DNA of 64,000 nt from Nemertoderma westbladi (taxonomy: Eukaryota; Animalia; Xenacoelomorpha): assembly GCA_032718475.1 (NCBI GenBank), contig JAUCBJ010002448.1:1-64000 (forward strand). Reading direction: 5' to 3'. The position numbers and the translations under genes were made by a program. Each line of letters begins with the position of its first letter. Position 1 is the first letter of the stretch. The notes beneath the pieces were generated by a model that had not been told where the DNA came from, did no database searches, and saw only the letters and a program-made list of their open reading frames with translations. Of the stretch, positions 35,008 to 62,582 are shown piece by piece.

Positions 35008-37150
35008 CGACAAATCTCTCCGACAGTGTGCCGAAATCTTTATGACACTTCTGAATGACACTGTGCCAAAATCTCTCCGACACAGTGCGGAAATCTCTCC
35101 GACACTGTGCCGAAATCTATCCGACACTGTGCCGAAACCTCTCCGACACTGTGCCGAAATCTCTCCGACACTGTGACAAAATCTCTCTGAAACAGTGCCG
35201 AAATCTCTCTGACATTGTGCCAAAATCTATCCGACACAGTGCCGAAATCTCTCCAACACAGTGCCGAAATCTCTCCGACACTGTGCCGAAATCTCAACGA
35301 CACTGTGCCGAAATCTCTCTGACACTGTGCCGAAATCTCAACGACACTGTGCCGAAATCTCTCCGACACTGTTCCGAAATCTCTCTGACACTGTGCCGAA
35401 ATTTTTCCGACATTGTGCCGAAATCTCTCTGACACTGTGCCAAAATATCTCCGACACTGTGCCGAAATCTCTCCGACACTGTGACGAAATCTCTCCGACA
35501 CTGTGCCGAAATCTCAACGACATTGTGCCGAAATCTCTCTGACACTGTGCCGAAATCTCTCTGAGACTGTGCCGAGATCTTTCCGACACTGTGCCGAAAT
35601 CTCTCCGACACTGTGCCGAAATCTCTCCGACACTGTGCCGAAATCTCTACGACACTGTGCCGAAATCTCTCCGACACTGTGCCGAAATCTCTCTGATACT
35701 GTGCCGAAATCTCAACGACACTGTGCCGAAATCTCTCTGACACTGTGCCGAAATCTCAACGACACTGTGCCGAAATCTCTCCGACACTGTTCCGAAATCT
35801 CTCTGACACTGTGCCGAAATCTTTCCGACATTGTGCCGAAATCTCTCTGACACTGTGCCAAAATATCTCCGACACTGTGCCGAAATCTCTCCGACACTGT
35901 GACGAAATCTCTCCGACACTGTGCCGAAATCTCAACGACATTGTGCCGAAATCTCTCTGACACTGTGCCGAAATCTCTCTGAGACTGTGCCGAGATCTTT
36001 CCGACACTGTGCCGAAATCTCTCCGACACTGTGCCGAAATCTCTCCGACACTGTGCCGAAATCTCTACGACACTGTGCCGAAATCTCTCCGACACTGTGC
36101 CGAAATCTCTCCGACACTGTGACGAAATCTCTCCGACACTGTGCCGAAATCTCAACGACATTGTGCCGTAATCTCTCTGACACTGTGCCGAAATCTCTCT
36201 GAGACTGTGCCGAGATCTTTCCGACACTGTGCCGAAATCTCTCCGACACTGTGCCGAAATCTTTCCGACATTGTGCCGAAATCTCTCTGACACTGTGCCA
36301 AAATATCTCCGACACTGTGCCGAAATCTCTCTGAGACTGTGCCGAGATCTTTCCGACACTGTGCCGAAATCTCTCCGACACTGTGCCGAAATCTCTCCGA
36401 CACTGTGCCGAAATCTCTACGACACTGTGCCGAAATCTCTCCGACACTGTGCCGAAATCTCTCTGACACTGTGCCGAAATCTCTCCGACAATGTGCCAAA
36501 ATCTCTCCAACGCTGTGCCAAAATTCCTCCGACACTGTGCCGAAATTTTTCCGACACTGCGCCGAAATCTCTCCGACACTGTGCCGAAATCTCTCCGACT
36601 GTGCCGAAATCTCTACGACACTGTGCCGAAATCTCTCCGACACTGTGCCGAAATCTCTCTGACACTTTGCAGAAATCTCTCCGACAATGTGCCAAAATCT
36701 CTCCAACGCTGTGCCAAAATTCCTCCGACACTGTGCCGAAATCTATCCGACACTGTGCCGAAATCTTTCCGACTCTGTGCCGAAATCTCTCCAACAATGT
36801 GCAGAAATCTCTCCGACACGGTGCCGATATCTCTCCAACACTGTGCCGAAACTTCTCCGACACTGTGTCGAAATCTCTCCGATACTGTGCCGAAATCTCT
36901 CAGACAATGTGCCGAAATCTCTCCGACATTGTGCCAAAATTTCACCGGCACTGTGCCGAAATCTCTCCGACACTGTGCCAAAATCTCTCCAACACTGTGC
37001 CGAAATCCCTCCGACACTGTGCCGAAATCTTTCCGACTCTGTGCCGAAATCTCTCCGACAATGTGCAGAAATCTCTCCAACACTGTGCCGATATCTCTCC
37101 AACACTGTGCCGAAACTTCTCCGACACTGTTGAAATCTCTCCGACGCTGT
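35008..37150. repeat. 22-bp minisatellite (CACTGTGCCGAAATCTCTCCGA), ~95 copies
   Basis: Direct periodicity. All overlapping ORFs are repeat artefacts. Confidence 0.97.
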
Positions 37151-37163
37151 GCCTGATATGCCT

Positions 37164-38597
37164 TATATGTGGCTGGTTGCGAGAAAAGGGACCTGGGGAC
37201 CACATGGTCGATTTTGCGTTTTTAGGCCTATTAGATACAGAATTTTCTGGGCTTTCCGAATATCGAACTGGTTTTTTCATATCGTTTTTCGTTAAAAAGT
37301 TATGAGAGTTTAAACAAAAAATTAAAAACGCAGGTCCCTTTTCTCGCAACCAATGTTAATTTTTTGATGTGGTCCCGTTCTGGCATCCATCTCAGGTATT
37401 TTTTGTGCTAAAATTTTCAAATGTTTTTATAATTCAATAATATTAATTTTTTGCGCTATATGTAGCGGTTTTTTTAGACACTGATCACAAATATTGAACT
37501 CAAATATAACATTCTAGAAAATTTTTGGTAATTTTGAATGTGCCCTTTGGGGCACGAAAAAAAATCGTAGTGCAAATATGATAATGAAAAATCACCACAA
37601 AATTAAATTGATTTTATGAACATATGGTTTTTTTGGAATGCTGATCACGAATTAAAACAATTTTTTCGATATGTCATTGTGTGAATGTGCGGCACGAAAA
37701 ATACAAGTAGCAAAAGTTTGATAACCAAAAATCATTACCACATCAACCTGAATTTTAGACATTATGGGTTTTCTGGGACACTGATCACGAATATGACACT
37801 CAAAAATATCGTATTATCCAACCAAACTCGCTTTTTGCAATTTGAAATGTTTGCTACTTGTAATTTTCGTCCCAACAGAAAAGCACCAAAATTGACAGTT
37901 GCATTACCACGAATGATTTGTAACGTGTTATATCGTGATCAGCTACCTTGAAAACCAGTATAGCTTCAGAATTACCAAATCATAGGCATAATTTGACAGT
38001 TTATAAGTTTGTGCTATTTGTAATTTTCGTTCTGGGGCACTAGAATAGCACCAAAATTGGGTTTGCCTTACCAGAAATATTTATAACTAGTAATCAATTA
38101 CTCGTAATCAGCGACCTCGAAAACACATACGTTCAGAATTATCAAACCAAACACAAATTTTTTTATGTTGACATTTTTTTACTTGTACTTTTCATACTGG
38201 GGGACCAAAATAGCACAAAAAATGATGGTTGCTTTTCCAAAAAATATTTTTAACAAGTTTTATCATGATCAGCGACCTGAAAACCCTATTATTTAATAGG
38301 TTCAGCCACTCTGCTTCAGTTTCCATAATAAATTCTAATTTATTCGTGTATTAACTTGTTTGTACAATAACTAACCGAATAGGCTATATATATTCTACGA
38401 TAATCTAAAAAAACAAGTGTATACGGTGCTTACTACTATTACTAGTATAATACAGTTTGAATTTCGCTCTAATAAAACCCAATAACGACCAATAAACCAA
38501 TGAAAACAGTCGATTTTAAGAGCCAAACTTTAAACGCGTTTTTCTCAGAATAAACATTTTTTCCCCAGGTCCCTTTTCTCGCAACCAGCCACATATA
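37164..38597. mobile_element. Non-autonomous TIR DNA transposon flanked by TATA/ATAT
   Basis: TATATGTGGCTGGTTGCGAGAAAAGGGACCTGGGGA is the reverse complement of TCCCCAGGTCCCTTTTCTCGCAACCAGCCACATATA. There is an internal partial TIR copy near 37331. Confidence 0.85.
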
Positions 38598-38674
38598 CAT
38601 TTTTTCATAAAGGCAATCAAATATGTCAATTATTTAAAAAACAATAATAGGACAACTGTTCTTTACCAACTGTT

Positions 38675-39497
38675 CTTTGCTGATGACTTAGGAGTACTCT
38701 CAGAATCATTAGAGGGAGCCCAACGGCTCCTCAGCTCATTAGAACATGCTGCTTCTAGTGTTGGTCTTTTTATTAACTCCAGAAAGACCAAAATTCTGAC
38801 AGTTAACTTTGAAAGTCCTCAGCAAGTCTCTGATCGGATGAGCATAAGCTCAAAGGATGGTATGCTTGAGCATGTAGACGACTTCTGTTACCTGGGATCA
38901 TGGATCCGGAAGTCAGGTGAGGACCTTCGAATACGTAAGGGAAAGGCATGGGCAGCCTTAAATAGGCTTTCCAGGATTTGGAAGTCACCGAGAATTAATC
39001 GAAAACTTAAGGTCCGATTATTTAGAGCAGCAGTAGTTCCAGTACTCCTCTACGGGAGTCCATGCTGGGCTCTAACTGCTGAGGACACCAAATCTCTGGA
39101 TGGCACATTCACAAGAATGCTACGCCGGGTTCATTGTGTCAAGTACAATGCACACATCTCCAACCAGACACTATATAACATTGGAGGTGTCTCATTGGTT
39201 CCTCCAAGCTTGACACTAGAACAAAATCGCCTCCGCTTTGCAGGACATTGCTTTCGCCGTGAGGACCAGCCAGTGCATAATCTTGTACTTTGGCAGCCTC
39301 ATGGAGTGAATAAGCATGGTGGACAGCCCATGACTTTCTTGAGACGCATCTTAAAGGACACTGGCCTTAAAGATGCGGATGATCTAGCAAATGTCATGGG
39401 TGATAGGGAGTTGTGGCGGTGCAATTTTGTTGACAAGCCGGCACAGCATTCTTAAAAATGCAGCTGCAATGCAGCATGCCGATCCTAGTAGTAGTAG
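38675..39497 (+). mobile_element. 5'-truncated second copy of the RTE-type LINE
   Basis: Near-identical to ~21852-22675. Starts at FADDL and ends in a (TAG)n tail. Confidence 0.92.
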
Positions 39498-40615: not shown

Positions 40616-41063
40616 GTTTACACCCTAATTTTTTTGGCAGTTTGGAGAACAATAATTTTTTTGACTGTATAAACCGGGCTTTGGAAACAATCCAACCCAC
40701 ACACTATGAGGTAAAACTTCCCTTCTTTGTTGCAGACGTCTGTTAGATTTACCGGCGCAAGGAAAAGCACTGACAGCAGAGAACTTATGCAATCAATAAA
40801 GTAACATAAAGGCAATCAATGGCGGCAAGTATTAAAACCTATTATTGAACAATTATTAGTAACTACCTTAGTGTAGATACCATTGTAATTTAATTATCGC
40901 TTTAAATGACATTCTTATGATTAACGGTCACAGACAGACTGCTAGCGCCTGGCTTCCAGTTATAGACAGACTGCTGGCACCTACCTACCAGTTCTACCAG
41001 TCCTACCGCTTCTACACGGGCACGGGGTCGGATCATGTCTCTAGCTGGGAGCTAGAGATCAGG

Positions 41064-41378
41064 ATGTTCGATGCTGATGAGGATCAGGATGTTCGTGATA
41101 GTTACCAAGTTGGAGATTTTGTGTGGGCCAAACTTAAGAAACGGGACAAATTTTGGCCTAGTCGAATATGTGAGCCATATGGAACGCCAAAAAGTTCTAG
41201 ACCCTACTGGGTGTTCTTTTACGGATCCAACAATTATGGGTGGGTTAGCGGAGCCATGGTTTTAAAATATGACAGGGGGGCCGATGATTACACTTCACTT
41301 ATCAATTCATCTTTGAATAAACTATTTACTAAAGGTGTTGCTGAGTTGGATGAGGAGCTTGGAAAAATCGTTACATGA
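41064..41378 (+). CDS. Stand-alone PWWP-domain protein (~104 aa from the ATG at 41064; the ORF extends up to 40917)
   Basis: YQVGDFVWAKLKKRDKFWPSRI...YWVFFYGSNNYGWV...LKY...LFTKGVAEL matches the HDGF/LEDGF/NSD-type PWWP pattern. Confidence 0.75.
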   Translation: MFDADEDQDVRDSYQVGDFVWAKLKKRDKFWPSRICEPYGTPKSSRPYWVFFYGSNNYGWVSGAMVLKYDRGADDYTSLINSSLNKLFTKGVAELDEELGKIVT

Positions 41379-43975: not shown

Positions 43976-44779
43976 AGAGATTAACCACCGTTATTTGCTT
44001 GGAAAACCGTCCTTGTAGATAGGATCATAATTAATGAAACAACGGTTCTATCTGTTACTTTAACCGCCGGTTTCTTAAAATAACCCCTGGTAGTTTTGGT
44101 GTAAAAATACCCGGGATTATTTTAGAAAACCAGCGGTTTTTTTAGTTAAAACCAAGGTTTATCTTTTTCAGTGTGCTTATAGATATAGTGTGCCTGCAGA
44201 TATTAATATATAGTCTTTTAGAAGTATAGATAGGCAAGTTCTTGACAATAGGTCATATAATATTGACCCTAGATACATTTTGACATCATATTTGGATTCA
44301 GCAACCCACAAAACCATATAAACAACAATTATCATATGAATTTAGTCATGTTATTTCCTTTTGTAAACAAAAAAAGCTATTTTTGACACCCAGTTTGTCT
44401 CAATTTCAAAAGTGCCATGACACCACCATCTAGGGACATTTTTAGTCCAAAATTCCAACGAATTCGGATTCCTCATAAAAAATGGACAAAGATGCCTGGC
44501 GTTTTTCACATTTCGGAAAAGTGCTAGATTCCCCCAACCCTACTGTAAACCTTTGTAAAACTTTGTAAACCTTCTAACTAGGGATATTTAAGTCAAGTAT
44601 GACATCTTTAGTTTTACAATACTCTTCTCCTTCATTAGCCTTGTTGCGCTCGTCCTGTTTTGTCTTAAAATAATTTTCCTAAGCAGAGACTAATGAACGA
44701 CCTTTAGAACTATGCAAACTCTCGAAACTATGAGAGTAACTGCTGAGCTTATATATGGTAAATGGATACTTGTATCCAC

Positions 44780-45230
44780 TGTAAACTCGTCCAGGAACCT
44801 TGGAAACAGGCATTGGCTCGAACTCGAGTTTGATATTACTGCTCCCACGTTCTTCCTCTGGGAAAGATTCAACAAGTGCGGCAGAGTTGGATACAAACTT
44901 CTTCAGTTTAAATCCGCCACCCACTAAGCAGTCCTGTAAGTCGTGAGCTATGTTAATGGCTTGCTCCTCAGTGACACAGCTCTTTAAGCCATCATCTGCG
45001 TAAAAGTCGTGTTGGACTGTGTGTATTACATCGGCAGCAAACTTATCTGCTTGTCTCTTTGCTGTTTCTTTAAGGACAAACAGTACACCGTCCTGGCTAT
45101 CTCGGGCCCCGAAAATCCGCAGTTTCATCTGGTATGTGGTTGGCTCACCGATAGATCCTTTTTTGGATACCAAAGAAAGCGCAGACTATCGCAGTCCTCG
45201 GCCAATGCATGGACCTGATGGCTCAAACCT
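44780..45230 (-). mobile_element. Degenerate BEL/Pao RT fragment from a related, older element
   Basis: DSLRFLWYPK, YQM...FGA, DFYADDGLKS and GGFKLKKFVSNS are homologous to the RT at ~53790-54130. Confidence 0.8.
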
Positions 45231-45440
45231 GCACAGACAAGCCTGGTCTTTGTATTGGTAACTGATTCCAGCGTTATCATATTGATATAAATAAGGCATA
45301 GTGTGGACTGTGTGTGTATAGTGGCAAGATGAGTCATTGTCTCAGTGTTATCTCAGTTGATAATAATATATCATATTATTATCATATTATATGTTAGGAT
45401 GGGCTCAGTTGGCTATATTCATATTATATTCAAGATAATG

Positions 45441-46600
45441 TGTAAAAGCTTTTGCGTCATTAACCGGTTATTTTCCCTTAAAGTACTCTGTAGTTGGTTT
45501 GCCAGGCATAAAAAGGCCGTGTCCTTGCTGTACTGGTGTTTTAGAGGACATAAAAGTCATTTCTTATGTATTTGTACTGTATTTGTACTTTAGAGGACAT
45601 AATCCGCAATCTCGTGACGCGATAAGCTAGATACTCTTGAAAACAGTGTCGATACCATGATGACGGCTAACAGCTGATATTGCCACGTCGACGTTTCTTT
45701 GTTTCTTTGTTCTCTCGTTGTTCGGTTGACCAATCAGAGCGTTTGTTGTCTCTGTGTTGGAGGTGTATACAGAAACTCAGTAGTTCAGTGTTATGTTTTT
45801 GCCCAGAGCCTAAGAACCGGCTTTTGGCACCTCCGTGTTTTCAGTTTTTAGTCTTACATTAGTAGGCTTAATTATAGAACGTATATCTGTTATCACGAGC
45901 TATTCACTCATTTACTATCCATAAATTATTAATATTACTGCCTTTGCTGTTGGTTATTCGTTATATTTGTTGATGAATTATTATATCGGAATACTGATCA
46001 ATAGTCAGACACCCCACCTTCTTGATATACTAAAGGTTAGAGAGACCGGTTACAGATAAACGATTGCGACCTATGTATGTTGAGTGGTTTGAAGTGAATC
46101 TAATGCTATTTCATATGCCCAACATAAATTGTCTGTTGCTCTCTTTATACGTGACCAAATTTAGTGAAGGTCGGCAGATTAGTGTGCAGTATTGTGCAGC
46201 ATTGTGTATGAGTGTAACTGATAACAAAGCATCTCCTAAAGAATGTGCCATATACGTTAATCTATAGCCTTTTCGTTGTGACTAGTTAAAGTCATAACTC
46301 TGTTTACATATTTAGAGCGCCACGTCCTAAAGGAACTGTTAATATTTCCCGAAAGTGAATAATATTTGTCAGAGATTATATATTACGATCAGTCGAATAA
46401 TACAGTAGGCTTACACCATCAATCATTAAGCCCCGAACTCAGTCTCCCGGGTATATCCAACGGGTGAATGATTGCGCATAGACTGGCTTCGGCTAATGTA
46501 GTGTATCAAATACTCGTCATAGGCTAAAGACTATCTATCATCCAAAAGACATTCTAATTTTGGCAGGTTAAACTGTCAAAGGTCTTCAAAAGCGCAAACA
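45441..46600 (+). repeat. 5' LTR (1160 bp)
   Basis: TGTAAAAGC...GCGCAAACA. Near-identical to 60106-61255. Confidence 0.97.
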
Positions 46601-46611
46601 ATAACAGATAT
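46601..46611 (+). promoter_or_regulatory. Putative self-priming primer-binding site ATAACAGATAT
   Basis: Directly abuts the 5' LTR, lacks the TGG of a tRNA PBS, and is the exact reverse complement of LTR 45883-45893 (ATATCTGTTAT). Confidence 0.6.
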
Positions 46612-46884
46612 TGCTTCTGGATTGCGGTGTAAGCAATCTAGTCGAAAGTACCGGTCGACCGGAAACCTGTAGGCCTGACTGCCTGATCACCCGAACCGGT
46701 ACTTACAGTACAGGTACAGCAGTATTATTCGATTTTGATAATTATATACCGGTAGGCCTTAATAATTAATCAGGGACTGCAGCCCTGGTTTTTTATTGAG
46801 ATTTTACTTGTTTCTGTCAAGTTTTATTTATTTGTAGGCCAGTATTGAACAGAAGGCGTGTAAGCCTGATCATATTGTACAGAC

Positions 46885-47440
46885 AATTTGTAGGCTGGGC
46901 TGTTGTCTGATTGTTGTTATGTCTGAACGGATTGCAGTGTGTGTAGATCACCTGTCCGATAAAGAACGGTTAGGAAGTAGGGGCAGCCAAAGCTGTAAGG
47001 TAAACCCCCATCTAAAGAATAAGTCGTACTACTGGGTTAGAACGCATACTACCTAATCATTTCGGAGTCTGCATGTCCTGTAGTTTATTTAGGCTTGAGA
47101 GTAGTCTGCCATCGTTTAGTCTGTACTTTGTTTGTGTAGTCTGTACAGGTAGCGTATAATATTTATTTAGATAATTTGTAGGCTGGATAGTTGTCTGGCT
47201 GTTATTAGGTCTGAACGGATTGCAGTGTGTGTAGAGCCTCTGTCCGATAAAGAACGGTTAGCTGTAAGGTAAGGTAAACCCCCATCTAAAGAATAAGTCG
47301 TACTACTGGGTTAGAACGCATACTACCTAATCATTTCGGAGTCTGCATGTCCTGTAGTTTATTTAGGCTTGATAGTAGTCTGTCAGTGTTTGGTCTGCAT
47401 TTTGTTTGAGTGGTTTGTACGCGTAGCGTAATATTTATTA
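46885..47440 (+). repeat. ~288-bp direct duplication in the BEL 5' leader
   Basis: AATTTGTAGGCTGG at 46885 and 47173. Both copies share the AAGGTAAACCCCCATCTAAAG block. Confidence 0.85.
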
Positions 47441-48759
47441 TTCAGAGTTTATGCGATTATTCGCAACATTCATTCCCCAAGTTTGTTCCTACAATAATTG
47501 TGTTTGTTATACATACCGCTATAGTTAAATTAACCCCGGTACTACACGGGCTGCTTGGCGTAGGTAAAGACTGGTGATTTTGTGCACCGGTCACTCCAGC
47601 AGATGCCGTGGTTCTTTTAGCTGTTCAAGTATATTTAACTACTGATTATATGTTGTACAAGTACTCGTAACTAATTTAGGGTTTAGTGTACAGTGCTTTC
47701 CGAAAGTAATTAGTGTAGACATTATATTTGTGTTGTAAAGTGGTTGATAGGCACGTTCGATTAGCTCTATTAACTTCTAGGTAGGAACACTCCGTGATAC
47801 ATAACGTAGTACCTATAGCGATACGGCTATAGGTCGTCAGGCGGTGGTATTTTCTTATCTGGACAACGCAGTGTATTTACTACTACTTATTATTTTCAAA
47901 TACCTTAGTACCCTGTCCGTTGTAATAACCAGATTTCTAACCCTTTGTTAGGCTGGTTAGTAGACTTCTTGTAAAATTACCCTAAAATTTCGTATTTTGT
48001 GTTTTTTGTAAATTTTTGTGTTTATTTAGAGATTGTAATCTCAACCCGAATTGTACGTAATTTGTAGTATTAAGTAACTTAGTTAAATTAGAATTATTTG
48101 TTTTAGTGTCCAACAAGTAGCACTCTACTGAGAGCGCACTGCTTATGTGTAGTGACTCCCCAGAAATAATAACATTTATTTCAACATTGACAAAACCCAT
48201 TAAACGGGTATATATATATTATAAATCAACTCAAACGATTTATAAATAGTAGGCCTGCCATACAACAATTAGGTCTCAATATCAGTTGGACTACTGCTTA
48301 AATAACGGTAATAAAGTAAGTTAAAGTAACCAAGTAACCCTTAAAATTCAGAAATTCAATTATTCTAAAATAATTGACATACCGGTATTTACAATAGGCT
48401 TATTATATTTATTTCTATAAATTTTAGGTTGAAATCATACCGGTATTCTGTAATTAATTCTAGTCTGTAATTATACTTATATATATACATTATAGGCGTA
48501 AACTGCATACCGGTATTCACGATAGGCCTATTATATATTTATATATTTGTGCTAAAATTACCTACCGGTATTCTGTGATAAACTAGTCTGTAATAATACT
48601 TATATATACTATAAGCATACCGGTATACTAATATATTATATATCACGCTACACTGAGTAGCAGTATCGGTAATTAATTACTAGGCTAGCAGTTAACTCTG
48701 AATTACTAGACTTGCTTAAACTGTAATATAGCAGTAGGCATTCAACTGTGCAAACCAAC

Positions 48760-51700
48760 ATGTCTGATACTAAACAGAACCTGTCAGACAGTTTATTAGA
48801 TGTAACTATCTGCGACCCAGACAGAGGTGTAGAACCGTCTAGTCCTAAGTTCAGTTCACCTCCCACTGTGAGGAAGGTCATCCCTCCAGTAGTAATAACA
48901 GAACCTAGGCTGGTCCAACATCGTAGGTCTATCATAGGCACTCGAGCTCAGGTCAAGCGGGACCAAGAAGCAGCGGAACAGCAACAACCCGCGAGCCAAG
49001 AACTTATTTCTCAGCGGCCCGACAGCTCCAGTAGTGAAGATACTGTAGAACTGACACCCGAGCTCGGAGCAAGGATGACGGATGCGGTTTATTCGGATCC
49101 CCTTCTCATCCTTCCTGCAGCCGTACTCACTAGGTTATTGATCGCGGTGGAAGAACACCAGATCGATTGGGCGAGAAGTAAGCGATCAACTAAAGATCGA
49201 TATGAGGGATACACAAGGGAAGAACTGAAGTCTATGGTCGAGTCACAATGGAACTTCCCCGGACGCGGACTTCCATTTGATTTATCAGAAGCTGCCTGGG
49301 AAGACATACACCGGATGGGAGTAGCCCAGGAAACCATCGATCCAGCTGTGTGGAAGAGGTCCGCAGCTGGATACGCACAGGGATTCTTCAGCTCTATGGA
49401 GCGAGTAGAAAAACAAATGTTTCAACAACCAAAGGGACCTCAAGAGCAGGGACAACTGCTTTATCAAGTTAGAGAAAGAATTCTGCGAATCAGGCTAATA
49501 TTATCAGCCTTTGAAGAGGCTTCTAAAAGAAGACAAGACACGTCGTTGCAAGTTGCCGTAAAGACTTGGTTTCAACGGGTGAGTCGCCAGGTTCAAGGAA
49601 CAGCTCAGTGGAAAGCTCAGCTGGAGGAGCGCTCAACCCATGGAGAATCAACGGACGCTACTTTTTCCCAAGTGGAAAGTGAAGCGACGGCAGAGAAACC
49701 GCATAAGAGGGATGCCATTGACATCTATCTGTCAGACTATCAGCGTTTTTTGGGAGATGAAGAGTTGAGGAGAAGGTTAGCGGGACTTAGTCCTAATAGT
49801 GAAGGAGCCCAGCGTGTGTTGGATGCAATTGATGTGGATAGGTTAGCGGCGAACCAAGCTAAATTCGATGAACAACTCCGCATCGCTAGAGACCAAGAAG
49901 AAAAAGTAAGGAAAAAACGTATAGAAGACAGAAAGATAGCAGCAGTGGCAGAGGCAGAAAGAAAAGCGACCTTGGCAGGAGCAGCGGCAGAGGCAAAAGC
50001 GGCAGCAGCAGAAGCAGCGGCAGAGGCAAAAGCGGCAGCAGCGGCAGCGGCAGAGGCAAAAGCGGCAGCGGTGGCGGAAGCAGAACGGAGAGCGGCTGAA
50101 GAGATCGCCCAACTGGAGTTGGAAAATCTTCAAGAGAAGCAAGACGACTTCAGTAAACAGTTAACAGCTAGTAATATGCAGATGATGAATCGATCTACTC
50201 CCAAAAGACAGGGTTATACATCATCTGAGGAAGGCGATACCACCGACACTGAAGGCGGAGGAAATCGATCTCGCCTAAGCAGACGTAAAAGAACATTCCA
50301 CCGTCAGAAATTGCCTGATTTGCCTCCAGCTGTTAGAAGGCAACTAAATAACACCAACTTAGCGAGTACAGAACCCACAGATCAAATAATTACAATAGAG
50401 AGACTCCCTACTATAGTAGATGAGCCTGAAATAATTAGGCCTGTTCCCGAAGCTACCCTTTCGGTCGTAGAGACACCTGTACTCCCTGAACCTACCTCTC
50501 AATTCCCGTTGCACAGCACTAAGCTACCTGTGCCCAGCAGAACAGCCCATGAGACAGTTCATGCTCTAGACTCCGAGCGAAATATTCATGATTTGTCGCC
50601 CGTTGTCCCTCGTCCGCCCGCTACAACGTTGGCGGATCCCGTTTCGGCGGTTGATTGGGTGGACGAGAGACGGCGGGGGATGGACATTCTCCTCGGAAAG
50701 ATGGAGGAGAATCAAATGCGCTCCTCCCAACAGGTCCGAGAGTTAGAAGGGACTGTTCAACAGTTAAAGGGAACCGTAAAGGAAAGTAGGTTAGAGTTGC
50801 AGGAAGTGCAGCAAAATATCGCGCTAGAACGTGATAAATTAGTAAATTTACAAAAGGGTATACCACCACCCCTTGTAACAATGTGTCAACCTGTTAGGTC
50901 TGAAGTATCTCATGCGCAAGGTGTGGAGCCTACACGCATCTATACTGCTAGCGAAGTAGAAACTCCTATAGTGAACCCTATTAAGGGTAATTATAGACCT
51001 GTTGATAATGATATTCCCTATAGACCGGATCATAATCCGAGAAATTTATATACCGATAACTCGATATTAAATAACACGATGGGCCAAGAAAGTCTTACGC
51101 GTCAAATGGCTAGAACCGAAGCCCGGCAAGCGGTAAAGGTGGGAGAGATCGTCAAGTTCAATGGAGATGAGATGAAATGGTTACCTTTTAATGAATATTA
51201 CAAAGATAACATACAGAACTCTGTCCTATCTAATGGAGAGAAACTTAGATTCCTCATCGAGTGCTTGGAAGGATCTCCCAAGTTAATGGCGTTAAAGTTT
51301 ATTGGACATCCAGACGGATTAAGACAAGTTTGGGATACACTAAACATCAGGTATGGTAATAGGAATAACATAGCTGGGTATTTGTATGCAAAGTTGGTAG
51401 CGCCCCGAAAGTTTATTAGCAGCGGAATTATAGAGTTTTCCGATGAGATTCAGGAGATCTGTAGACAATTAGATTGGCTAGGTAAGTCTCATGAGTATCA
51501 GAATGCTATGGTTATTAGAGCAGTGGCTTCTACTTTACCGAAGGGTGGAGTAGGTACACGCTGGGATAAGAAAGTGTTATATATGATGGAACAACAACGA
51601 CGAGACCCTACCATGGCTGATCTCATGACATTCCTAGATGGAGAAGTGAAATTACAGCTCCTGAAACTGTCCAGAGAGAAGACACCAGAAAACAAGGTAA

Positions 51701-52929
51701 GTGAAAAACCCGTCTCTAGGAGAAAGGTAACACCAGTGTGTTATACAGACGACGGCGAAAGCCAGACTTCTCAAGGAGAAGATAGCGGGAAAGACACTGA
51801 TAGATCTTATTACGTAAATAAAATGCCTAAAGATCAGGTAAGTAAATTCAAGTCTCGAACAAATGACAGGAGAGAACAGGTCAGAAAAACTCCTCCTACG
51901 TCTCCCAAGAGAATTCAGGTGAGAAAGCCCGAAGAAAAAGCAAGTGTACACAATGTGACTCAGATTAAGGTGAGTAACATCAAACCGAAATGTGCGCTAT
52001 GTGACGGGACCCATCGCTTAAATATGTGTGATGAATTTCTAAAGAAATCATTAACTGAGAGACGTGAAGTCATGTGGGATAAGCGGTTATGTTATAATTG
52101 CCTCAGACAAGGACACCAACGGCGAACCTGTTACTCGGACATAAGGTGTGCAAAGTGTGGTGCGAAACATCATATCTTGTTGCACGCTGAATTCGAGCGA
52201 AATAGTCCGAATCAGGTAAGTGATTCCGAACTACATGTCCAATTCAGTGATGTGAACGACACTGATCAATCTGAGATGGAAGGATTCTATACGGACGAGT
52301 TCTCCGACGAAAACGAATCCTGTTACATGATAAATACCGCAGTGTATCGAGCACTCACATATGAAAAAGATACAGACAGTGACCTCACTCTAACTACTTC
52401 TGATCGACAACCATCTTGGAAAGAGCCATCTTCCAATGTAGGGATCCGAGAGTTTCCTGTGGTGCAGGTAAGGGTTCACGGACCTAAAAGGAGTTATGTA
52501 GTGAACGCCCTCCTTGACTCCGGTAGTACAGGAACATTCATCGATAAAGAGCTAGCCAAAGACATATTTGCTGGACAACCCAAGTTCCGAACTAAGCTAA
52601 ACATGTCAGGCATTATGCAAGTTTGGAAATCTACAGTAACAGCGGATTATTATGTAGGCGCGTTGTCCACCCCCCAGGACGAACTAGGAGAACATAGCAT
52701 AAGGTCAGTGAAAATGGTGGCTATAAAGAACTTCGCTACTACTCAAGCAGACCTTTATAATTGGGACGAGGATGAGAACATCCAACATCTTAACATACCT
52801 CGATTCCAGACTGATTATCCTGGAGTGCAAATACTCATCGGCCAAAACGCGCATGAGGCGCTGGAGACATTAGAGAAACGGCCTGCTCAACCGCAGCCAC
52901 TACAGACCTATGCGGTAAGAACTAACTAG
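48760..52929 (+). CDS. gag: BEL/Pao Gag + aspartic protease (ends at a frameshift)
   Basis: KFNGDEMKWLPF...LSNGEKLRFL (BEL Gag domain). Three Cys/His knuckles: CALCDGTHRLNMC, CYNCLRQGHQRRTC and CAKCGAKHHILLH. Protease motif LLDSGS. Long N-terminal coiled-coil, Ala-rich extension. Confidence 0.92.
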   Translation: MSDTKQNLSDSLLDVTICDPDRGVEPSSPKFSSPPTVRKVIPPVVITEPRLVQHRRSIIGTRAQVKRDQEAAEQQQPASQELISQRPDSSSSEDTVELTPELGARMTDAVYSDPLLILPAAVLTRLLIAVEEHQIDWARSKRSTKDRYEGYTREELKSMVESQWNFPGRGLPFDLSEAAWEDIHRMGVAQETIDPAVWKRSAAGYAQGFFSSMERVEKQMFQQPKGPQEQGQLLYQVRERILRIRLILSAFEEASKRRQDTSLQVAVKTWFQRVSRQVQGTAQWKAQLEERSTHGESTDATFSQVESEATAEKPHKRDAIDIYLSDYQRFLGDEELRRRLAGLSPNSEGAQRVLDAIDVDRLAANQAKFDEQLRIARDQEEKVRKKRIEDRKIAAVAEAERKATLAGAAAEAKAAAAEAAAEAKAAAAAAAEAKAAAVAEAERRAAEEIAQLELENLQEKQDDFSKQLTASNMQMMNRSTPKRQGYTSSEEGDTTDTEGGGNRSRLSRRKRTFHRQKLPDLPPAVRRQLNNTNLASTEPTDQIITIERLPTIVDEPEIIRPVPEATLSVVETPVLPEPTSQFPLHSTKLPVPSRTAHETVHALDSERNIHDLSPVVPRPPATTLADPVSAVDWVDERRRGMDILLGKMEENQMRSSQQVRELEGTVQQLKGTVKESRLELQEVQQNIALERDKLVNLQKGIPPPLVTMCQPVRSEVSHAQGVEPTRIYTASEVETPIVNPIKGNYRPVDNDIPYRPDHNPRNLYTDNSILNNTMGQESLTRQMARTEARQAVKVGEIVKFNGDEMKWLPFNEYYKDNIQNSVLSNGEKLRFLIECLEGSPKLMALKFIGHPDGLRQVWDTLNIRYGNRNNIAGYLYAKLVAPRKFISSGIIEFSDEIQEICRQLDWLGKSHEYQNAMVIRAVASTLPKGGVGTRWDKKVLYMMEQQRRDPTMADLMTFLDGEVKLQLLKLSREKTPENKVSEKPVSRRKVTPVCYTDDGESQTSQGEDSGKDTDRSYYVNKMPKDQVSKFKSRTNDRREQVRKTPPTSPKRIQVRKPEEKASVHNVTQIKVSNIKPKCALCDGTHRLNMCDEFLKKSLTERREVMWDKRLCYNCLRQGHQRRTCYSDIRCAKCGAKHHILLHAEFERNSPNQVSDSELHVQFSDVNDTDQSEMEGFYTDEFSDENESCYMINTAVYRALTYEKDTDSDLTLTTSDRQPSWKEPSSNVGIREFPVVQVRVHGPKRSYVVNALLDSGSTGTFIDKELAKDIFAGQPKFRTKLNMSGIMQVWKSTVTADYYVGALSTPQDELGEHSIRSVKMVAIKNFATTQADLYNWDEDENIQHLNIPRFQTDYPGVQILIGQNAHEALETLEKRPAQPQPLQTYAVRTN

Positions 52930-53982
52930 AGTAGGTTGGTACTTTACTGGCCCTTCACGTAGAACACTCAGAGAAAGACTACCGCAAGAGCGCGTCTGCC
53001 AGGTGAGTGAATGGGAAGATGATACTAGTGAGGGAGACGACTTAACTGAGGGAACCCCATACTCCTCAGATAACGACGACGTTCACCAGCTTTTTGATGA
53101 GGAGAATACCAGCGATCTCCTTAAGGAAAACGAGGCTTGGCAAAACCAAGTGAACTTATGTCAACTTCTTTATCCATCTGAACGAGAAGCTTATAACGAC
53201 GAGCTAAATGACGTCATTGAGCGTTGTAATGCCGTACGATTCTTTACGCAAGAGGCGGTAGAGCCCAATTCCTACGATAAAGCCTTATCGGTGGAAGAGG
53301 AAAGGGCCAAGCAGATCCAAGAGACAACTACACGTTTCCTCAAAGATCAAGGTAGGTATGAAGTCGGTCTACCTTTCCGCAAGAGAGAACCGAAGTTCAT
53401 CAATAACAGACCCTTGGCGGAAAAAAGAATCGCGCAACTCCATCGACGCCTTACGGCTAATTCTTCAGCTAAAGAAATGTATCAAACACAGCTGGAGAAA
53501 TTTATTAGTAAGGGATACGCGGAGAGAGTACCGGAAGAAACACCTGTGACTGAAAGAACGTATTACTTAACTCACCATTACGTTCCTAAACCCGGTAAAC
53601 CACATGAAGTGAGAGTAGTGTTTGATGGCTCCGCTCTTTACATGGGTCAATCCCTTAACTCTGAATTGTTACCCGGACCCAACTTACTTCAATCTTTGTT
53701 GGGAATTCTTTTAAGATTGAGACAATATTCGATTGCTTTCGCCTCCGATATAGAAGGCATGTTCTTACAAGTCAAAGTGTTAGATAGGGATCGAGATAGT
53801 CTACGATTTCTGTGGTGGCCCGAAGGAGACCTCAACCAGAAACCGGTGGAGTACTGGATGACCATCCAGGCCTTTGGGATAATCTCAAGCCCTTCCAATG
53901 CCTGTTCGGTAGTGCGTACCACTGCAGAGGACAACCGAGAGGCCTTCTCTAAGGAAGTGATCGACAACATCAAGCGGGACAT
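52925..53982 (+). CDS. pol: BEL/Pao Pol, N-terminal RT segment between two frameshifts
   Basis: TRVGWYFTGP, GRYEVGLPF, YYLTHH, RVVFDGSA, SLNSELLPGPNL, DIEGMFLQV and LRFLW. Confidence 0.9.
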
Positions 53983-56850
53983 ATGGACGACAACCTGAAG
54001 TCCCTTCCATCAGTTGAGGAAGCCATTGAGGTCGCTAAAGGAATGGTAGAGTGCTTAAAAAGAGGTGGGTTTCGATTAACGAAATTCACCAGCAACTCCC
54101 GTGAGTTTCTGGAGTCGATCCCTGCGGAAGATCTAGATTTGATCAAAGATGATCTGCCAGAAACCAAGACACTCGGCTTGAAATGGGACACAGAGCGAGA
54201 TATCCTGTTTTTCCAGCTAAAACAGCGAGATAATCCAGTTCGAACCAAACGGATTTGCTTAAGTATACTGAGCACTTATTTCGATCCATTGGGATTTATT
54301 AGCCCAGTTATATTGATTGCTCGTAGTTTGGTACAACAAATGTGGCTTGAAAACCACTCATGGGACGATCCACTTAAGGGAGAATTATTAAAGAAGTGGA
54401 TGAAATGGGAAGATTCTCTGCCGGCTATCGAGGATTTTATAATTTCCCGTTCATATTTTGGCCATGTTCTCCCTACGTATTCCTATCAACTCCATGTGTT
54501 TGGAGACGCCAGCGATATGGGAATAGGTATAGTAGCCTATCTAAGAGTGGAAACTCCGGATGGAATCAAAGTCGCCTTGGTTACTTCTAAGGCATTAATC
54601 AACAACAAGTTGAAAGTTCCTCGAGCGGAGTTAAAAGCGGCTCTATACGCTACAGCCATCGGCCGGAATGTAACAGAACAGATTGACTATCCATTAGAGA
54701 AAACTGTCTATTGGACCGACGCTTTACTCGTGTTAGAGTATATAACCAATGAAGTCTGTCAGTTCAGCGTCTTCATTACCAACAGAGTAGCCATCATACT
54801 TAGTCGCACGACGATGGACCAATGGAGACATTGCCCCGGAACGATTAATCCAGCAGACATCGCTTCCCGAGGAGCGACTCCAAAGGAATTGGTAAATACT
54901 CCCGAATGGTTAGGTGGACCCGACTTTCTCTACCGAGAAGAAGAAGAATGGCCTCCCCATCTCACAACAGCAGAGATCAGACAGGCCAAGGGAGCGGAGA
55001 AAGTTAAACCCAAAACTCGAGCGAGTAAATCGAAGTTGTTTAAACCTGCGGTTGATCTATCTGTATTATTTACTTCCGGAGAGGATGCTTTGGATCAGAA
55101 ACCCACCGCCACGACTAAAGAAGTCTTGGAAATCCGTGACAAGGATTGGAAATCTGGAATACCAGATATCGCGCAAGGACTCTCACCCCTCTTGCAGAGA
55201 GCGATACGTCACTACAGCTCCTGGAATCGGCTCTGTAAAGCCGTCACCTATTTAAAACGATGTTTTCATCATCGTTACTCCGGGACAAAGACCAATAGTG
55301 ATGATGCTCCATCAACGTCTGCACGAGTCCATGTTGTTAAAGATCTTCCCAAATACAAGATATCCGACAGGTTTCTAAAGGAGAAGATCAGTTACCAGGA
55401 GCATGATGAAACCAACAAACAGATGCTGAGACTCCTACAATGCTATGAAGATCCCGATAAGTATTTCCTGTTGTTAAGAAATCCGCAGATGTGCTTAAGG
55501 GATCGCTTCTCTAGTACCATGATAGATGGGTTAATACGTGTTGGAGGCAGGCTTACCAACGCCCCATTATCCTTTGACACTAAATTTCCCATACTCATTA
55601 GAAATCTTGACATACAAATCAAGATGATTGTAGATGTTCATAGCAAACTGTATCATGCTGGAACAGAACGAGTTCTGAGCGAAATTCGAACTCGCTTCTA
55701 TTTTTATAAACCCCGTAGGGCTCTGAACCAAGTCCTTAGGAACTGCATACCCTGTAGGAAAGCATTCAGTAGGCCTTTGACGCAGCGAGAGGCAGAATTA
55801 CCTAGGGAAAGAGTAAGCTTCTATGAACCACCCTTTACTAATACCGGTGTGGATTTATTTGGCCCTATTGAAGTATATCGTGCCCGGACTATAGTCAAGA
55901 GATGGTGTGTCATCTTCGTTTGTATGACTTGTAGAGCTATCCATCTCGATATGGTAAACGATCTATCCACCAACAGCTTCGTGTTGAGTTTACGACGACA
56001 GATCGCTCGCTTCGGAACCAGTAACACGATGAGATCGGATAAGGGAACGAACTTCATTGGCGCCAACAACGAAATTCAAGCTTACGTAAAGGACTGGAAT
56101 AAAAGACAGGTGGACGATCAGCTAAGGATAACAGCGTCTAGCTGGACCTTCAACGCCGCCGACGCCCCTTGGTGGGGAGGAAGTTGGGAGAGATTGATTA
56201 GGAGCGTGAAGACTGCGTTCCACTTCATTGTGCCTTGTCGCGCTTATCTCACCGACGAACTATTGCGGACGTTAATGGAGGAAATCGCCGCCTATCTCAA
56301 CGAAAGACCGCTTATGCCAGTCTCTTCAAGTCCTGATTCCCTAGAAGCTCTAACACCCGCGCACTTTCTACTGAAGAAACCCGTAGCCATGCTCCCACGA
56401 TCGGAGATCACAGACGGAGACGAGTACTGCCGTCGAACCTGGCAACTTATGCAGTTGCTATCCCGTCGTTTCGCTGACCATTTCGAGAAACATTACCTGC
56501 CCACTCTACAACTTCGAACTAAGTGGTTTGCGCAGCAAGAAAACGTCAGCGCTGGAGACATGGTGCTTATTGTGGACCCCGATCTCCCACGTAAGCGATG
56601 GCAAACAGGACGTATCATCGAGACTCATATCTCGAGCGATGGTTTGGTGCGATCAGTAGAACTCGTCGTCATGCGGCGTAACTTTAAGAAACCAGGGATA
56701 GTCTTTGAGACTCAACAGCTCAACCGCCCAGTGGGTCGTTTATGTTTACTGGAAAGAGACAGAGAGCTCTCCGGAAACTATGGAAGGCAAGAAACTCTTC
56801 CCACGACCACTTCCCTAATCCAACCCACATCTAGGGACTCCCCAACTTAA
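53983..56850 (+). CDS. pol: BEL/Pao Pol: RT C-terminus, RNase H, integrase
   Basis: (Y)MDD, LHVFGDAS, WTDA, NPADIASRG, H...H..C..C zinc motif, TGVDLFGP, RSDKGTNF and GGSWERLI. Confidence 0.95.
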   Translation: MDDNLKSLPSVEEAIEVAKGMVECLKRGGFRLTKFTSNSREFLESIPAEDLDLIKDDLPETKTLGLKWDTERDILFFQLKQRDNPVRTKRICLSILSTYFDPLGFISPVILIARSLVQQMWLENHSWDDPLKGELLKKWMKWEDSLPAIEDFIISRSYFGHVLPTYSYQLHVFGDASDMGIGIVAYLRVETPDGIKVALVTSKALINNKLKVPRAELKAALYATAIGRNVTEQIDYPLEKTVYWTDALLVLEYITNEVCQFSVFITNRVAIILSRTTMDQWRHCPGTINPADIASRGATPKELVNTPEWLGGPDFLYREEEEWPPHLTTAEIRQAKGAEKVKPKTRASKSKLFKPAVDLSVLFTSGEDALDQKPTATTKEVLEIRDKDWKSGIPDIAQGLSPLLQRAIRHYSSWNRLCKAVTYLKRCFHHRYSGTKTNSDDAPSTSARVHVVKDLPKYKISDRFLKEKISYQEHDETNKQMLRLLQCYEDPDKYFLLLRNPQMCLRDRFSSTMIDGLIRVGGRLTNAPLSFDTKFPILIRNLDIQIKMIVDVHSKLYHAGTERVLSEIRTRFYFYKPRRALNQVLRNCIPCRKAFSRPLTQREAELPRERVSFYEPPFTNTGVDLFGPIEVYRARTIVKRWCVIFVCMTCRAIHLDMVNDLSTNSFVLSLRRQIARFGTSNTMRSDKGTNFIGANNEIQAYVKDWNKRQVDDQLRITASSWTFNAADAPWWGGSWERLIRSVKTAFHFIVPCRAYLTDELLRTLMEEIAAYLNERPLMPVSSSPDSLEALTPAHFLLKKPVAMLPRSEITDGDEYCRRTWQLMQLLSRRFADHFEKHYLPTLQLRTKWFAQQENVSAGDMVLIVDPDLPRKRWQTGRIIETHISSDGLVRSVELVVMRRNFKKPGIVFETQQLNRPVGRLCLLERDRELSGNYGRQETLPTTTSLIQPTSRDSPT

Positions 56851-58503
56851 TATCGTTCGGAGTGGGCGTGTGACCATATTGCTTTATATTTGTATTTGTT
56901 TTATTTTTATATTTATGTATGTATTATTATGTAATTTTATTTTAATCGTTTTATTTAATTTTATTTAGTAGTATGGTATTTTAGAGATTATTTAGTAGAT
57001 TAGTGCAATATATATTCGCGTTTATTATTTAATTACGTATATTATATATTTAGTGCGACGGCGAGAAATAATTCTTTTTTCTCTTTCCTTACTGCCCGTA
57101 TTACATTATCAATACGTGACTACAGTAAGATGAAATATCCGTACTTATTAAAGTACAATAAAGCCACTACTATATTCAAGTATTATTGGTAGGCAGAGTA
57201 TTAGGAATGCAAAGTTCAGATCCTCGTGTCTCGGCTAAACCAAGCTCTGGGTAGACCTTGGAAACGACTTGCCTCTTCACACTGACATTGCTTCGTGCGA
57301 TATTGCTCTCATACCGTATATTAAATAATACATATAGTAGCGTGATGTCCCTTTAACAGTAGCGTATAACGCAAAATAAATCTGTTAAACCCTTTGACCA
57401 TCTGTAATTCTAGTCGATTAAGATATCGCGACACCCACCGATATACTTGAAAGACAAATTTCTAGAATCAATGGTTAACGTCCCCAGACAAGTTCTGGAA
57501 TAAACTGGTGCCCATCATAAATATTAATTATTAATATTTACAAAATTCTGTCAAATATCAGATCCTTTAAAATTCTAGTTGATTAAGATATCGTAGCACT
57601 TACCGATACTCTTAAAAGGACAAAATTCCTAGAATTAAGGATCCTATGTCCCCAGACCTGCTCTGGAATTAAATTGTGTCTATTTAACATTAAATAATAA
57701 AATTTCCGGGAATAAATTTAAATTCATATATTTCAATGAATTAATAAATTGTCATTTTATACAATTTATAACATTCCCAAAATTCCATTAATTAATAGAT
57801 CATGGGAGCGGAGATTCACTCTATTAAGTGTATTTGTGTGCGAGAATCTCCAATGTATAGTCAATAGCCGATAAAATTCATAAAATCATGTATAAAGGGG
57901 ATATTGACCATTAAAGAATTACTATTAAATAGCATCCCAGATCTGTATGCATGAGAATTACCCTAATTCTACCGCTAGCTTTCCATAATGTCACCATGGC
58001 AACAACCACGCTAGAATTAGAAGTGAGTTAAAAGAACAATAGAAAGCATGCGCATTGAATAGCATACGGAATAAATAGCACACCGCTAGTATCCAAGAAT
58101 ACATAATAACAACGTGACATTCTGGAAGGCACTTGACTAACGGACAAATGACCCGAATGTGTGATAGAATGTGTACCATTTGTGACTGTTACGTGGAATT
58201 TGTGCGTTTGTAGGAGAATGTTACTACTAAGGTGTGTTTACAGTAGCGAGTCGCAATTGTGAAAGTAACCCTAACTCTCCAGTAAGAACCTGAAGTATAT
58301 CTAAGCCTTTGGGACGGACAGTGGAGTGGCTCGTGCTGGTTGTTGTAGTCGTTGTGCAGCTACGACGTTGGCGATAGGCACATCGGCGAAAGTACACCAG
58401 CACTGAGGATCTCGCACTGTCCGGGGGCAGAGAGGGGTAGGCAGCGACGCCCGCTCGCCTAAATATAAACTCATTATAATATGGATAAATTTATATAGCA
58501 GAT

Positions 58504-59634
58504 ATGATTGAGTTGATAGAAGATGATCTTGGTATCAGGGAGCGATATACTCTACCTTTACAAGCGTTTGTTGATAGCTTGATACACGGCGACGCTGGTC
58601 CAACTGCTGCGGAGGACGATGATCGTTATATCGAACCGCCAATGTCCCAAGAGCAGCTCACGTGTGAGTTGGACTATAAGAAATTCACCGCTCGCTATAC
58701 GCATCGTAATGGTACGTATGTGGACTTCTTAACTACTGGTCATCCTATCGATTTACACGATACGGACAATGTCGACACCAAAAGGGAAATGGTACGATTG
58801 AAATATCCTACCCAGCGGAGGCGGAACGATAAACCGAGAATGGAACACGAGAATTCTATTCGAAACAGACTCGAAAGAGAAGACGTTGAGGAGCCGGATA
58901 AACGCAGCGACTTCAATGATTATCTGGAATTCCTGATAGAAACATATCTCAATATTGCCAGTCAACAAAATCTAGAAACTCGATATCCTCAAGGTATACA
59001 TCATGACCGCATGGTAGAACTCAAACGGCTCTATTCCCCTATGATGTATCTTACCGCCGATCGACCGCTACCTGTTGTACCGAATAGCTTCGAACGGATG
59101 GAGGAATATTGTAAGCTGGAGAAAGATCACTCGCGTTTCCCCTACAAGACGTACGTTTTTGGGTATTATTGCGATGAATGCTCAAGACCCAACCAACAAA
59201 CGGAAAGACATAAACATCCGCGGAGACGTTGCTTTAAACACGGTTTTACTCGCTATACTTACGGGAGTTTCGAGCGAAACTTGTTCAATGTATCACCTAC
59301 GCTCGTTCGACTCAGACGATTCTTAAATAAACCAATGATCAGAGTTTCGGAATACTCGATCAGAGCTCCTCCTTCCCTAGTGAGACCTCAGACTCTTGAT
59401 CCTATTAGTATGACGGATCCTCCCGAGCTGTACTCACTGCTCAAAGATCTAGTGTTACCTGAACGATTAGTCGGTGGCACCCCAGTTGTGGGCTTCTTAG
59501 ATATTAGCGCATCCTACCTAACCGGATTGGGACGCGGACATTTAATGTCGCCGTTTAACCCTTACCATCGTCCCGGCTTGACACGATATAACCTGTCACC
59601 AGAGTGGCGGAGAACGTTGTACCAAACGAGTTAA
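58504..59634 (+). CDS. Additional 376-aa ORF of unknown function between pol and the 3' LTR
   Basis: Uninterrupted sense ORF in AT-rich surroundings. Contains CDEC...H.H...C..H. No obvious signal peptide or transmembrane segment. Confidence 0.7.
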   Translation: MIELIEDDLGIRERYTLPLQAFVDSLIHGDAGPTAAEDDDRYIEPPMSQEQLTCELDYKKFTARYTHRNGTYVDFLTTGHPIDLHDTDNVDTKREMVRLKYPTQRRRNDKPRMEHENSIRNRLEREDVEEPDKRSDFNDYLEFLIETYLNIASQQNLETRYPQGIHHDRMVELKRLYSPMMYLTADRPLPVVPNSFERMEEYCKLEKDHSRFPYKTYVFGYYCDECSRPNQQTERHKHPRRRCFKHGFTRYTYGSFERNLFNVSPTLVRLRRFLNKPMIRVSEYSIRAPPSLVRPQTLDPISMTDPPELYSLLKDLVLPERLVGGTPVVGFLDISASYLTGLGRGHLMSPFNPYHRPGLTRYNLSPEWRRTLYQTS

Positions 59635-60097: not shown

Positions 60098-60105
60098 GGG
60101 AGCGG
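60098..60105 (+). promoter_or_regulatory. Polypurine-tract-like plus-strand primer site
   Basis: GGGAGCGG immediately precedes the TG of the 3' LTR. Confidence 0.6.
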
Positions 60106-61255
60106 TGTAAAAGCTTTTGCGTCATTAACCGGTTATTTTCCCTTAAAGTACTCTGTAGTTGGTTTGCCAGGCATAAAAAGGCCGTGTCCTTGCTGTACTG
60201 GTGTTTTAGAGGACATAAAAGTCATTTCTTATGTATTTGTACTGTATTTGTACTTTAGAGGACATAATCCGCAATCTCGTGACGCGATAAGCTAGATACT
60301 CTTGAAAACAGTGTCGATACCATGACGACGGCTAACAGCTGATATTGCCACGTCGACGTTTCTTTGTTTCTTTGTTCTCTCGTTGTTAGGTTGACCAATC
60401 AGAGCGTTTGTTGTCTCTGTGTTGGAGGTGTATACAGAAACTCAGTAGTTCAGTGTTATGTTTTTGCCCAGAGCCTAAGAACCGGCTTTTGGCACCTCCG
60501 TGTTTTCAGTTTTTAGTCTTACATTAGTAGGCTTAATTATAGAACGTATATCTGTTATCACGAGCTATTCACTCATTTACTATCCATAAATTATTAATAT
60601 TACTGCCTTTGCTGTTGGTTATTCGTTATATTTGTTGATGAATTATTATATCGGAATACTGATCAATAGTCAGACACCCCACCTTCTTGATATACTAAAG
60701 GTTAGAGAGACCGGTTACAGATAAACGATTGCGACCTATGTATGTTGAGTGGTTTGAAGTGAATCTAATGCTATTTCATATGCCCAACATAAATTGTCTG
60801 TTGCTCTCTTTATACGTGACCAAATTTAGTGAAGGTCGGCAGATTAGTGTGCAGTATTGTGCAGCATTGTGTATGAGTGTAACTGATAACAAAGCATCTC
60901 CTAAAGAATGTGCCATATACGTTAATCTATAGCCTTTTCGTTGTGACTATAACTCTGTTTACATATTTAGAGCGCCACGTCCTAAAGGAACTGTTAATAT
61001 TTCCCGAAAGTGAATAATATTTGTCAGAGATTATATATTACGATCAGTCGAATAATACAGTAGGCTTACACCATCAATCATTAAGCCCCGAACTCAGTCT
61101 CCCGGGTATATCCAACGGGTGAATGATTGCGCATAGACTGGCTTCGGCTAATGTAGTGTATCAAATACTCGTCATAGGCTAAAGACTATCTATCATCCAA
61201 AAGACATTCTAATTTTGGCAGGTTAAACTGTCAAAGGTCTTCAAAAGCGCAAACA
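60106..61255 (+). repeat. 3' LTR (1150 bp)
   Basis: Differs from the 5' LTR by a 10-bp indel (GTTAAAGTCA) and at least two substitutions seen by eye. Confidence 0.97.
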
Positions 61256-61752
61256 TAATGCAATTTTCTCCTTAGTTTTTGATCTAACAACATGGGGTAT
61301 TACAGTATAAGAGACATCGGAATGCGCTCCAGTATGTCATACAAGAGGACTGATATGCATACCTAGTATATCATGCAAGAGCACTAATATACATACTATG
61401 TATGTCATGCAAGGGCGCTGATATACATACTAAGTATGTCATGTAAGGGCGCTGCATGACATACCTAGTACGTCAAACATTTGATGTCAACCAAAGGGCA
61501 ATGGCCCAGAAAAATTTATCAAAATATGTTCCTTTTGGTCTACCATAGCTTCATGCTATTATATATATAGATATTATATATAGGTTTTACTTAGTTCGAA
61601 AATAACACCTGGTAAAATATAAGGATTCTCGCAGGACACTTTATTTTTGAATCAGTATGCAAAGGGTTAAATAAAGTAGGCAATAAAATAAAATAAATAA
61701 AATAAATTAAATATGGCAATTACTATAGTACTATTACTATAGTAGCAATACT

Positions 61753-62450: not shown

Positions 62451-62582
62451 ATCGCACTTATTATTTGTATTGCATTTATTATATGTATATATGTGAAAAT
62501 GACTTCACAATTATTTTAAGGTATGAATACGATTTTAATTTAATTATAATTGAATATTTGTACAGTAAATTTAAGTAATTAA

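Follow-up and report, generated by a model that had tools for sequence, protein, structure and literature searches.

Probable self-priming of reverse transcription in an unusually long BEL/Pao retrotransposon

Belpaoviridae (BEL/Pao; Semotivirus) are described in their ICTV profile as having an 18-nt primer binding site (PBS) for tRNA-Arg or tRNA-Gly, a genome of 4.2-10 kb, and LTRs of 0.2-1.2 kb (PMC8742986). Another way of priming is known from Tf1. According to the available parts of the Tf1 papers, its first 11 bases serve as the primer, RNase H cuts after base 11 (PMC7175516), and the cDNA keeps a copy of the PBS at its 3' end (PMC11042837). Self-priming is also predicted, in the accessible portion of one survey, for plant Tcn1 (Ty3/gypsy) and for TAR/Houba/Osr-1 (Ty1/copia) (PMC6317226). 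Taken together, the parts of the literature covered here name Tf1/sushi, Tcn1, and copia TAR/Houba/Osr-1 as the self-priming lineages (PMC6317226, PMC554778, PMC4600332, PMC3601003, PMC8220671, PMC11042837, PMC6934838, PMC3118150, PMC7175516, PMC5006619, PMC7472051). Self-priming in BEL/Pao was not found in the accessible portions of the open-access literature; subscription papers, survey supplements, and Repbase/GyDB may describe such PBSs.

A BEL/Pao element is found at positions 45441-61255 of the window (the whole 64-kb stretch of DNA that was analysed). At 15,815 bp it is unusually long. Its features are the following.

45436..45440, + strand: left target-site duplication, 5 bp (TAATG); the same 5 bases lie downstream of the 3' LTR
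45441..46600, + strand: 5' LTR, 1160 nt, TG...CA, from alignment with the 3' LTR
45883..45893, + strand: predicted self-primer segment in the LTR, with its predicted 3' end at 45893/45894; exact reverse complement of 46601-46611, 10/11 kept in one related contig
46601..46611, + strand: non-tRNA PBS at offset 0 from the LTR end; complementary to the LTR, first TGG at +18
46612..46650, + strand: predicted leader hairpin adjoining the PBS, -13.3 kcal/mol; stacks on the duplex in a fold begun at 45883
46612..48759, + strand: 5' non-coding leader, 2.1 kb, with internal direct repeats
48760..52929, + strand: Gag (three Cys-His knuckles) and protease, up to the first frame break; DUF1759 E=1.5e-10, weak Asp_protease_2, motifs
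52919..53998, + strand: N-terminal part of reverse transcriptase, up to the second frame break; placed by motifs, alone without a Pfam match
53953..56850, + strand: C-terminal RT, RNase H, and integrase; Peptidase_A17 E=4e-36, DUF5641 E=5e-20, Integrase_H2C2
58504..59634, + strand: extra 376-aa ORF between pol and the 3' LTR; no relative found
60098..60105, + strand: short polypurine tract (PPT), immediately 5' of the 3' LTR
60106..61255, + strand: 3' LTR, 1150 nt, from LTR alignment; second copy of the predicted primer segment at 60548-60558
61256..61260, + strand: right target-site duplication, matching the left one

The element is a member of BEL/Pao, an assignment made on its proteins. The BEL/Pao domains Peptidase_A17, DUF5641, DUF1759, and Integrase_H2C2 are present (Pfam), and motif positions, in a frame broken twice, give Gag followed by PR-RT-RH-IN, as in BEL/Pao. 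The closest proteins among the matches listed are 28-40% identical; all have Peptidase_A17 and many are named from animals. The protein searches gave the element no match above about 40% identity, and no relative was found among viral contigs or in a single-protein scan of genome contigs. A chromodomain was not detected (Pfam), and Ty3/gypsy chromovirus proteins are absent. The gag-pol frame is interrupted near 52920-52929 and near 53985-53998, the latter at the DD motif of RT, and motif placement puts RNase H inside unbroken frame. Aligned with each other, the 5' and 3' LTRs show two substitutions and a single 10-nt indel. This 99% likeness implies that the element transposed recently and with its present PBS. 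The LTR and leader (45400-48800) gave no Rfam match at E<=1.

The extra ORF is intact, has a Cys/His cluster, and had no match in any sequence or domain search run. A basic stretch resembling a nuclear signal lies 3' of it in another frame (about 59990-60027). Purine-rich stretches with TGT, similar to a PPT and LTR start, exist directly after the pol stop (56859-56871) and before the extra ORF (58212-58221), and are possibly relics of growth of the element. Tandem direct repeats, 75-86% alike, are found in its non-coding parts (46881-47439, 48378-48608, and 57406-57705). Elsewhere in the window, an RT fragment of another BEL/Pao element (44679-45185, - strand; tblastn E=3e-9) lies 250 bp from the 5' LTR. 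On the same strand, a 42-bp array of at least 66 copies continues in frame into a 645-aa region (25363-30390), whose motifs we take to be tyrosine-recombinase-like; Pfam gives it a weak EF-hand match alone. The window also includes a 22-bp tandem array (34925-37300), a MITE-like pair of 96% inverted repeats (62579-63705), an ORF with a PWWP domain (40872-41378), and two related fragments of non-LTR retrotransposons (20380-22632 and 38520-39455, the second with RVT_1 and DUF6451).

The CA at the end of the 5' LTR (46600) is fixed by the TAATG target-site duplication (TSD) on both flanks and by the 3' LTR. The PBS follows without a spacer and is not of the TGG type. A tRNA PBS at the first TGG (+18) is ruled out, the LTR end as set by the TSD being 17 nt upstream of it. 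The 11 bases of the PBS are the exact reverse complement of 45883-45893, and of the copy of this segment in the 3' LTR; perfect pairing ends at 11, and the polarity of the pair next to the LTR end is correct. Apart from the position of the first TGG, this had been stated in the initial annotation and is borne out here, as is its remark that there is no clean TATA box about 30 nt upstream of 45883; just a weak TATAGAA is seen, at -10. No other primer site was found in the element. A splice junction within its own 11-mer is ruled out, as the bases are contiguous and there is no acceptor inside. The first five letters of the PBS (46601-46605) are the same as the start of the Tf1 PBS in the accessible part of PMC11042837, and the first six are shared with the relative L062; convergence or chance may account for these shared letters.

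Markov models of the LTR of order 0 to 3 give 0.0014-0.0046 expected chance matches. Of the internal 11-mers, 2 of 13,484 find a complement in the LTR, as do 30 of 45,420 in the flanks (32/58,904 in total). In a looser search that admits spliced partners and offsets 0-4, a match of 11 is attained at 36 of 9,340 control positions. The probability of a chance match is about 0.1-0.5%, in agreement with the earlier view that it is unlikely. It could still be argued that the match is accidental, that the PBS has decayed or that another primer is used, and that the self-priming relatives described below are a separate lineage, since this is a single element noticed after the fact. Against this stand the low probability itself and the 99% likeness of the LTRs, hence recent movement with this very PBS. 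Together with the evidence from relatives given below, we consider an accidental match quite unlikely.

Relatives from a profile search consist of the best 80 of 525 metagenome loci and 35 loci from prokaryote assemblies holding animal-type DNA, 115 in all. Both repeat copies are present around pol in 41 of them, and in 16 the 3' copy runs off the contig, leaving 25 usable relatives. Their LTR ends are fixed by the repeat pair, independently of the PBS, and the search for partners in the LTR included GT-AG spliced ones and offsets 0-4. Twelve of the 25 (about seven families, six loci being one family) have a TGG-type PBS, and the self-match is at most 6 nt in all 12. The other 13 include L114, whose PBS starts with GTGG and which is counted as non-tRNA. 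Ten of these 13 (nine families) pair over 10-12 nt with their own LTR, four contiguously and six only across a GT-AG junction; the three without a partner have poorly set LTR ends. Among downstream control positions, 12 of 2,500 reached 10 nt. These counts support the view that self-complementary and tRNA-type PBSs are mutually exclusive among the relatives.

An unguided scan was applied to the 46 of the first 80 loci in which a gag start and a pol stop could be placed (three pairs of them are near-copies). Matches of at least 11 nt were found in 20/46, compared to 1/46 for the complement-only control and 1/46 for the reverse-only control. The mean best length was 9.5, versus 8.2 for shuffles. 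Note that in 17/46 loci a length of 11 was also attained by one or more of 10 shuffles, and that the best matches in L012, L057, L060, and L076 are probably off the LTR end.

In 26 relatives hand-picked by eye after the match was seen, the same signature is found in other letters. The match is 11 nt long in 15 and 10-13 nt long in 25 of the 26, with offsets of 0-4. The element has the length (11) and the offset (0) that occur most often, which argues against an accidental match. The element thus shares with its BEL/Pao relatives an 11-nt complement 0-4 nt from the LTR end, at the same offset as in L062. While its partner is contiguous, as in L008, L015, L046, and L096, that of the majority (18/26) exists only if a splice junction is crossed. 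In L046, the 5' LTR copy has a splice acceptor (130-150) and the 3' copy a contiguous partner (6918-6928), which looks like the loss of an intron from one of the two LTRs or, alternatively, a chimeric contig. Among the prokaryote assemblies, BEL/Pao elements that are complete, with both LTRs and TSDs, are found at L091, L096, L100-L104, L106-L108, L110, L114, and L115; most likely they are host DNA left in bins.

If PBS and LTR segment depend on each other, they should change together, as the initial annotation had expected. Among the distant relatives this expectation is upheld, both by the ten pairing loci among the 13 without TGG and by the sister pair L082/L112 (LTRs 89% identical), in which two differences in the primer are accompanied by two matching differences in the PBS, i.e., compensatory changes. 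Among the close relatives it is not. These are diverged copies in contigs of one public run, unphased and of several subfamilies. Two related contigs, in which the alignment covers the first seven bases of the PBS, have A>T at 46608 (base 8). The prediction, made in advance, of a matching change at 45886 failed: among the differences listed, the sole contig that covers the segment has one at 45888 and is unchanged at 45886. Although this failure is a point in favour of an accidental match, it is not decisive because the pieces are unphased and come from several subfamilies. In the same contig, about 95% likeness over 45570-45876 is followed by 10/11 in the segment, a kept 45894, and then 1/11 (by eye). 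A segment kept at 10 of 11 bases, next to 11 bases that match at one, is not what an accidental match would lead one to expect. The break in likeness after 45894, seen in one contig, falls where a self-primed cycle would switch template, which is suggestive.

Another explanation is that the primer is a host RNA, either a 5' tRNA half or another small RNA, with a 3' end that is similar to the LTR segment by coincidence. Bases 45887-45892 read like what we take to be the start of the tRNA-Asn (GUU) anticodon loop, and the related contigs align through the first seven PBS bases and differ at base 8. Priming by half-tRNAs is predicted for several copia lineages in the accessible part of PMC6317226. 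Such a primer would leave the exact complement in the LTR unexplained, and variation at PBS base 8 among close relatives also speaks against it. Moreover, the PBS 11-mers of the 26 hand-picked relatives and the element are all different (27/27), so one tRNA could not serve the whole group. No tRNA gene is found within the 64-kb window. A host RNA primer is in our view very unlikely.

The duplex of segment and PBS has a predicted energy of -10.5 kcal/mol. Folding predicts it at 0.92-0.99 when the RNA begins at 45880-45883, and does not predict it when the RNA begins at 45878 or earlier, in which case the segment pairs near 46223-46251; such folds are weak evidence at lengths of 800 nt or more. 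A decoy at 46047-46061 that pairs with the segment (-13.6 kcal/mol) was dismissed, as it is not kept in related contigs (by eye) and is not the partner in long folds. The hairpin beside the PBS comes from a single-sequence fold. Across 25 relatives, a second short helix is formed by bases 5' of the duplex and bases after the PBS, and 13/10,000 permutations are as strong; in the element itself this helix is average (25/50 versus mismatched partners).

The pairing could also be real but structural, closing an R-U5 domain for packaging, dimerisation, or translation, with priming by something else. This would fit with a predicted partner that switches with the RNA start and with a second helix that extends the duplex in relatives. 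It would fit less well with the downstream arm, which occupies the spot required for a primer, within 0-4 nt of the LTR end, and does so only in elements without a tRNA PBS; as mentioned before, no other primer site was found in the element either. A purely structural role is judged to be very improbable.

The folds at 45880-45883 would favour an RNA start close to 45883. A TATA box at about -30 is found in 1 of the 26 hand-picked relatives (in four of which the box was sought from a misplaced donor or site), and is ruled out as a feature of the group. An A two bases before the duplex is present in 20/26, but the element has G there, and this departure from the group counts for an accidental match. 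The likely start of the RNA is not 45883 itself but a position upstream of it, by a few to about 10 nt. The form known from Tf1, in which the RNA would begin at A45883 and its first 11 nt would be the primer, is doubtful for the BEL/Pao group because 18/26 partners are spliced, the second helix lies 5' of the duplex, and the TATA box is found in one relative.

The Pol of the element forms a long branch and is no more than 38% identical to any sequence in the tree. In an LG+G4 tree, the element joins insect rows on the tRNA side (SH-aLRT 84). In a mixture-model tree without those insect rows, it is on the self side (SH-aLRT 92), and the 22 self-type and seven tRNA-type rows separate with one change. 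When the insect rows were restored in a quick tree, the element had no resolved position, and the AU test neither showed nor rejected its grouping with the self-type rows (p=0.53). Since the element is a long branch of shifting position, a common origin with the self group is not established. This variation between analyses is a further point for an accidental match.

Weighing these lines of evidence, we propose, with a probability of about 0.78, that the element primes reverse transcription with its own RNA and without a tRNA. As for the earlier claim of tRNA-independent self-priming in BEL/Pao, the exclusive PBS types, the unguided scan with its two controls, and the one covarying sister pair are on its side, while covariation within the element's own family was not seen. 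In the proposed cycle, segment 45883-45893 would be transcribed from the 5' LTR, and the transcript would fold this segment onto the PBS. Cleavage of the RNA at 45893/45894, for which the element's RNase H is the probable enzyme, would follow. Extension of the new 3' end into U5 would produce a TG...CA end with nothing added. The PBS may be rewritten in each cycle, when the primer is copied during plus-strand synthesis, and the match would therefore stay exact. In most self-complementary relatives, the 11-nt partner would be formed only after removal of an LTR intron, the element having the unspliced, contiguous form.

More tentatively, at somewhat short of even odds, there may be a large BEL/Pao radiation without tRNA priming, most members of which splice an LTR intron to make an 11-nt primer that is released from inside the RNA and is not its capped first bases. 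The element would be either a giant, deep-branching, intron-less member of this radiation or a case in which self-priming arose independently. If the primer is built by splicing of an LTR intron, host splicing would license replication.

If self-priming of the element is true, BEL/Pao is the third superfamily with this mode, and all three main LTR superfamilies hold lineages without tRNA primers. It would also bear on whether tRNA priming is ancestral or late, a question raised in the accessible part of PMC3601003. Such elements would presumably escape regulation by the supply of tRNA or by 3' tRNA fragments; the available portion of PMC7472051 reviews such regulation for ERVs. It may further explain why tools that seek a tRNA PBS miss such elements.

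Compared with the Belpaoviridae profile (PMC8742986), the element has the Gag with Cys-His knuckles, the PR-RT-RH-IN order, LTRs within the range of length (1160/1150 nt), a short PPT, and a 5-bp TSD. It differs from the profile in lacking the 18-nt PBS for tRNA-Arg or tRNA-Gly, in its length of 15,815 bp against 4.2-10 kb, and in having an extra ORF without known relatives. Like Tcn1 and TAR/Houba/Osr-1 in the available part of PMC6317226, it is a case in which self-priming is deduced from sequence alone, in lineages that exist beside tRNA-primed ones, although the superfamilies and hosts are different. The similarity to Tf1/Tf2 of Schizosaccharomyces pombe, Tj1 of S. japonicus, and other Tf1/sushi elements is in the PBS of about 11 nt, which is complementary to the element's own LTR and adjoins the LTR end. 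A partner that spans a splice junction, as in most of the BEL/Pao relatives, is not described for Tf1 in the portions of the literature covered. While Tf1/sushi elements are Ty3/gypsy chromoviruses, the element described here is placed by Pfam in a different superfamily, BEL/Pao. Most likely, it works like Tf1 without being a member of Tf1/sushi.
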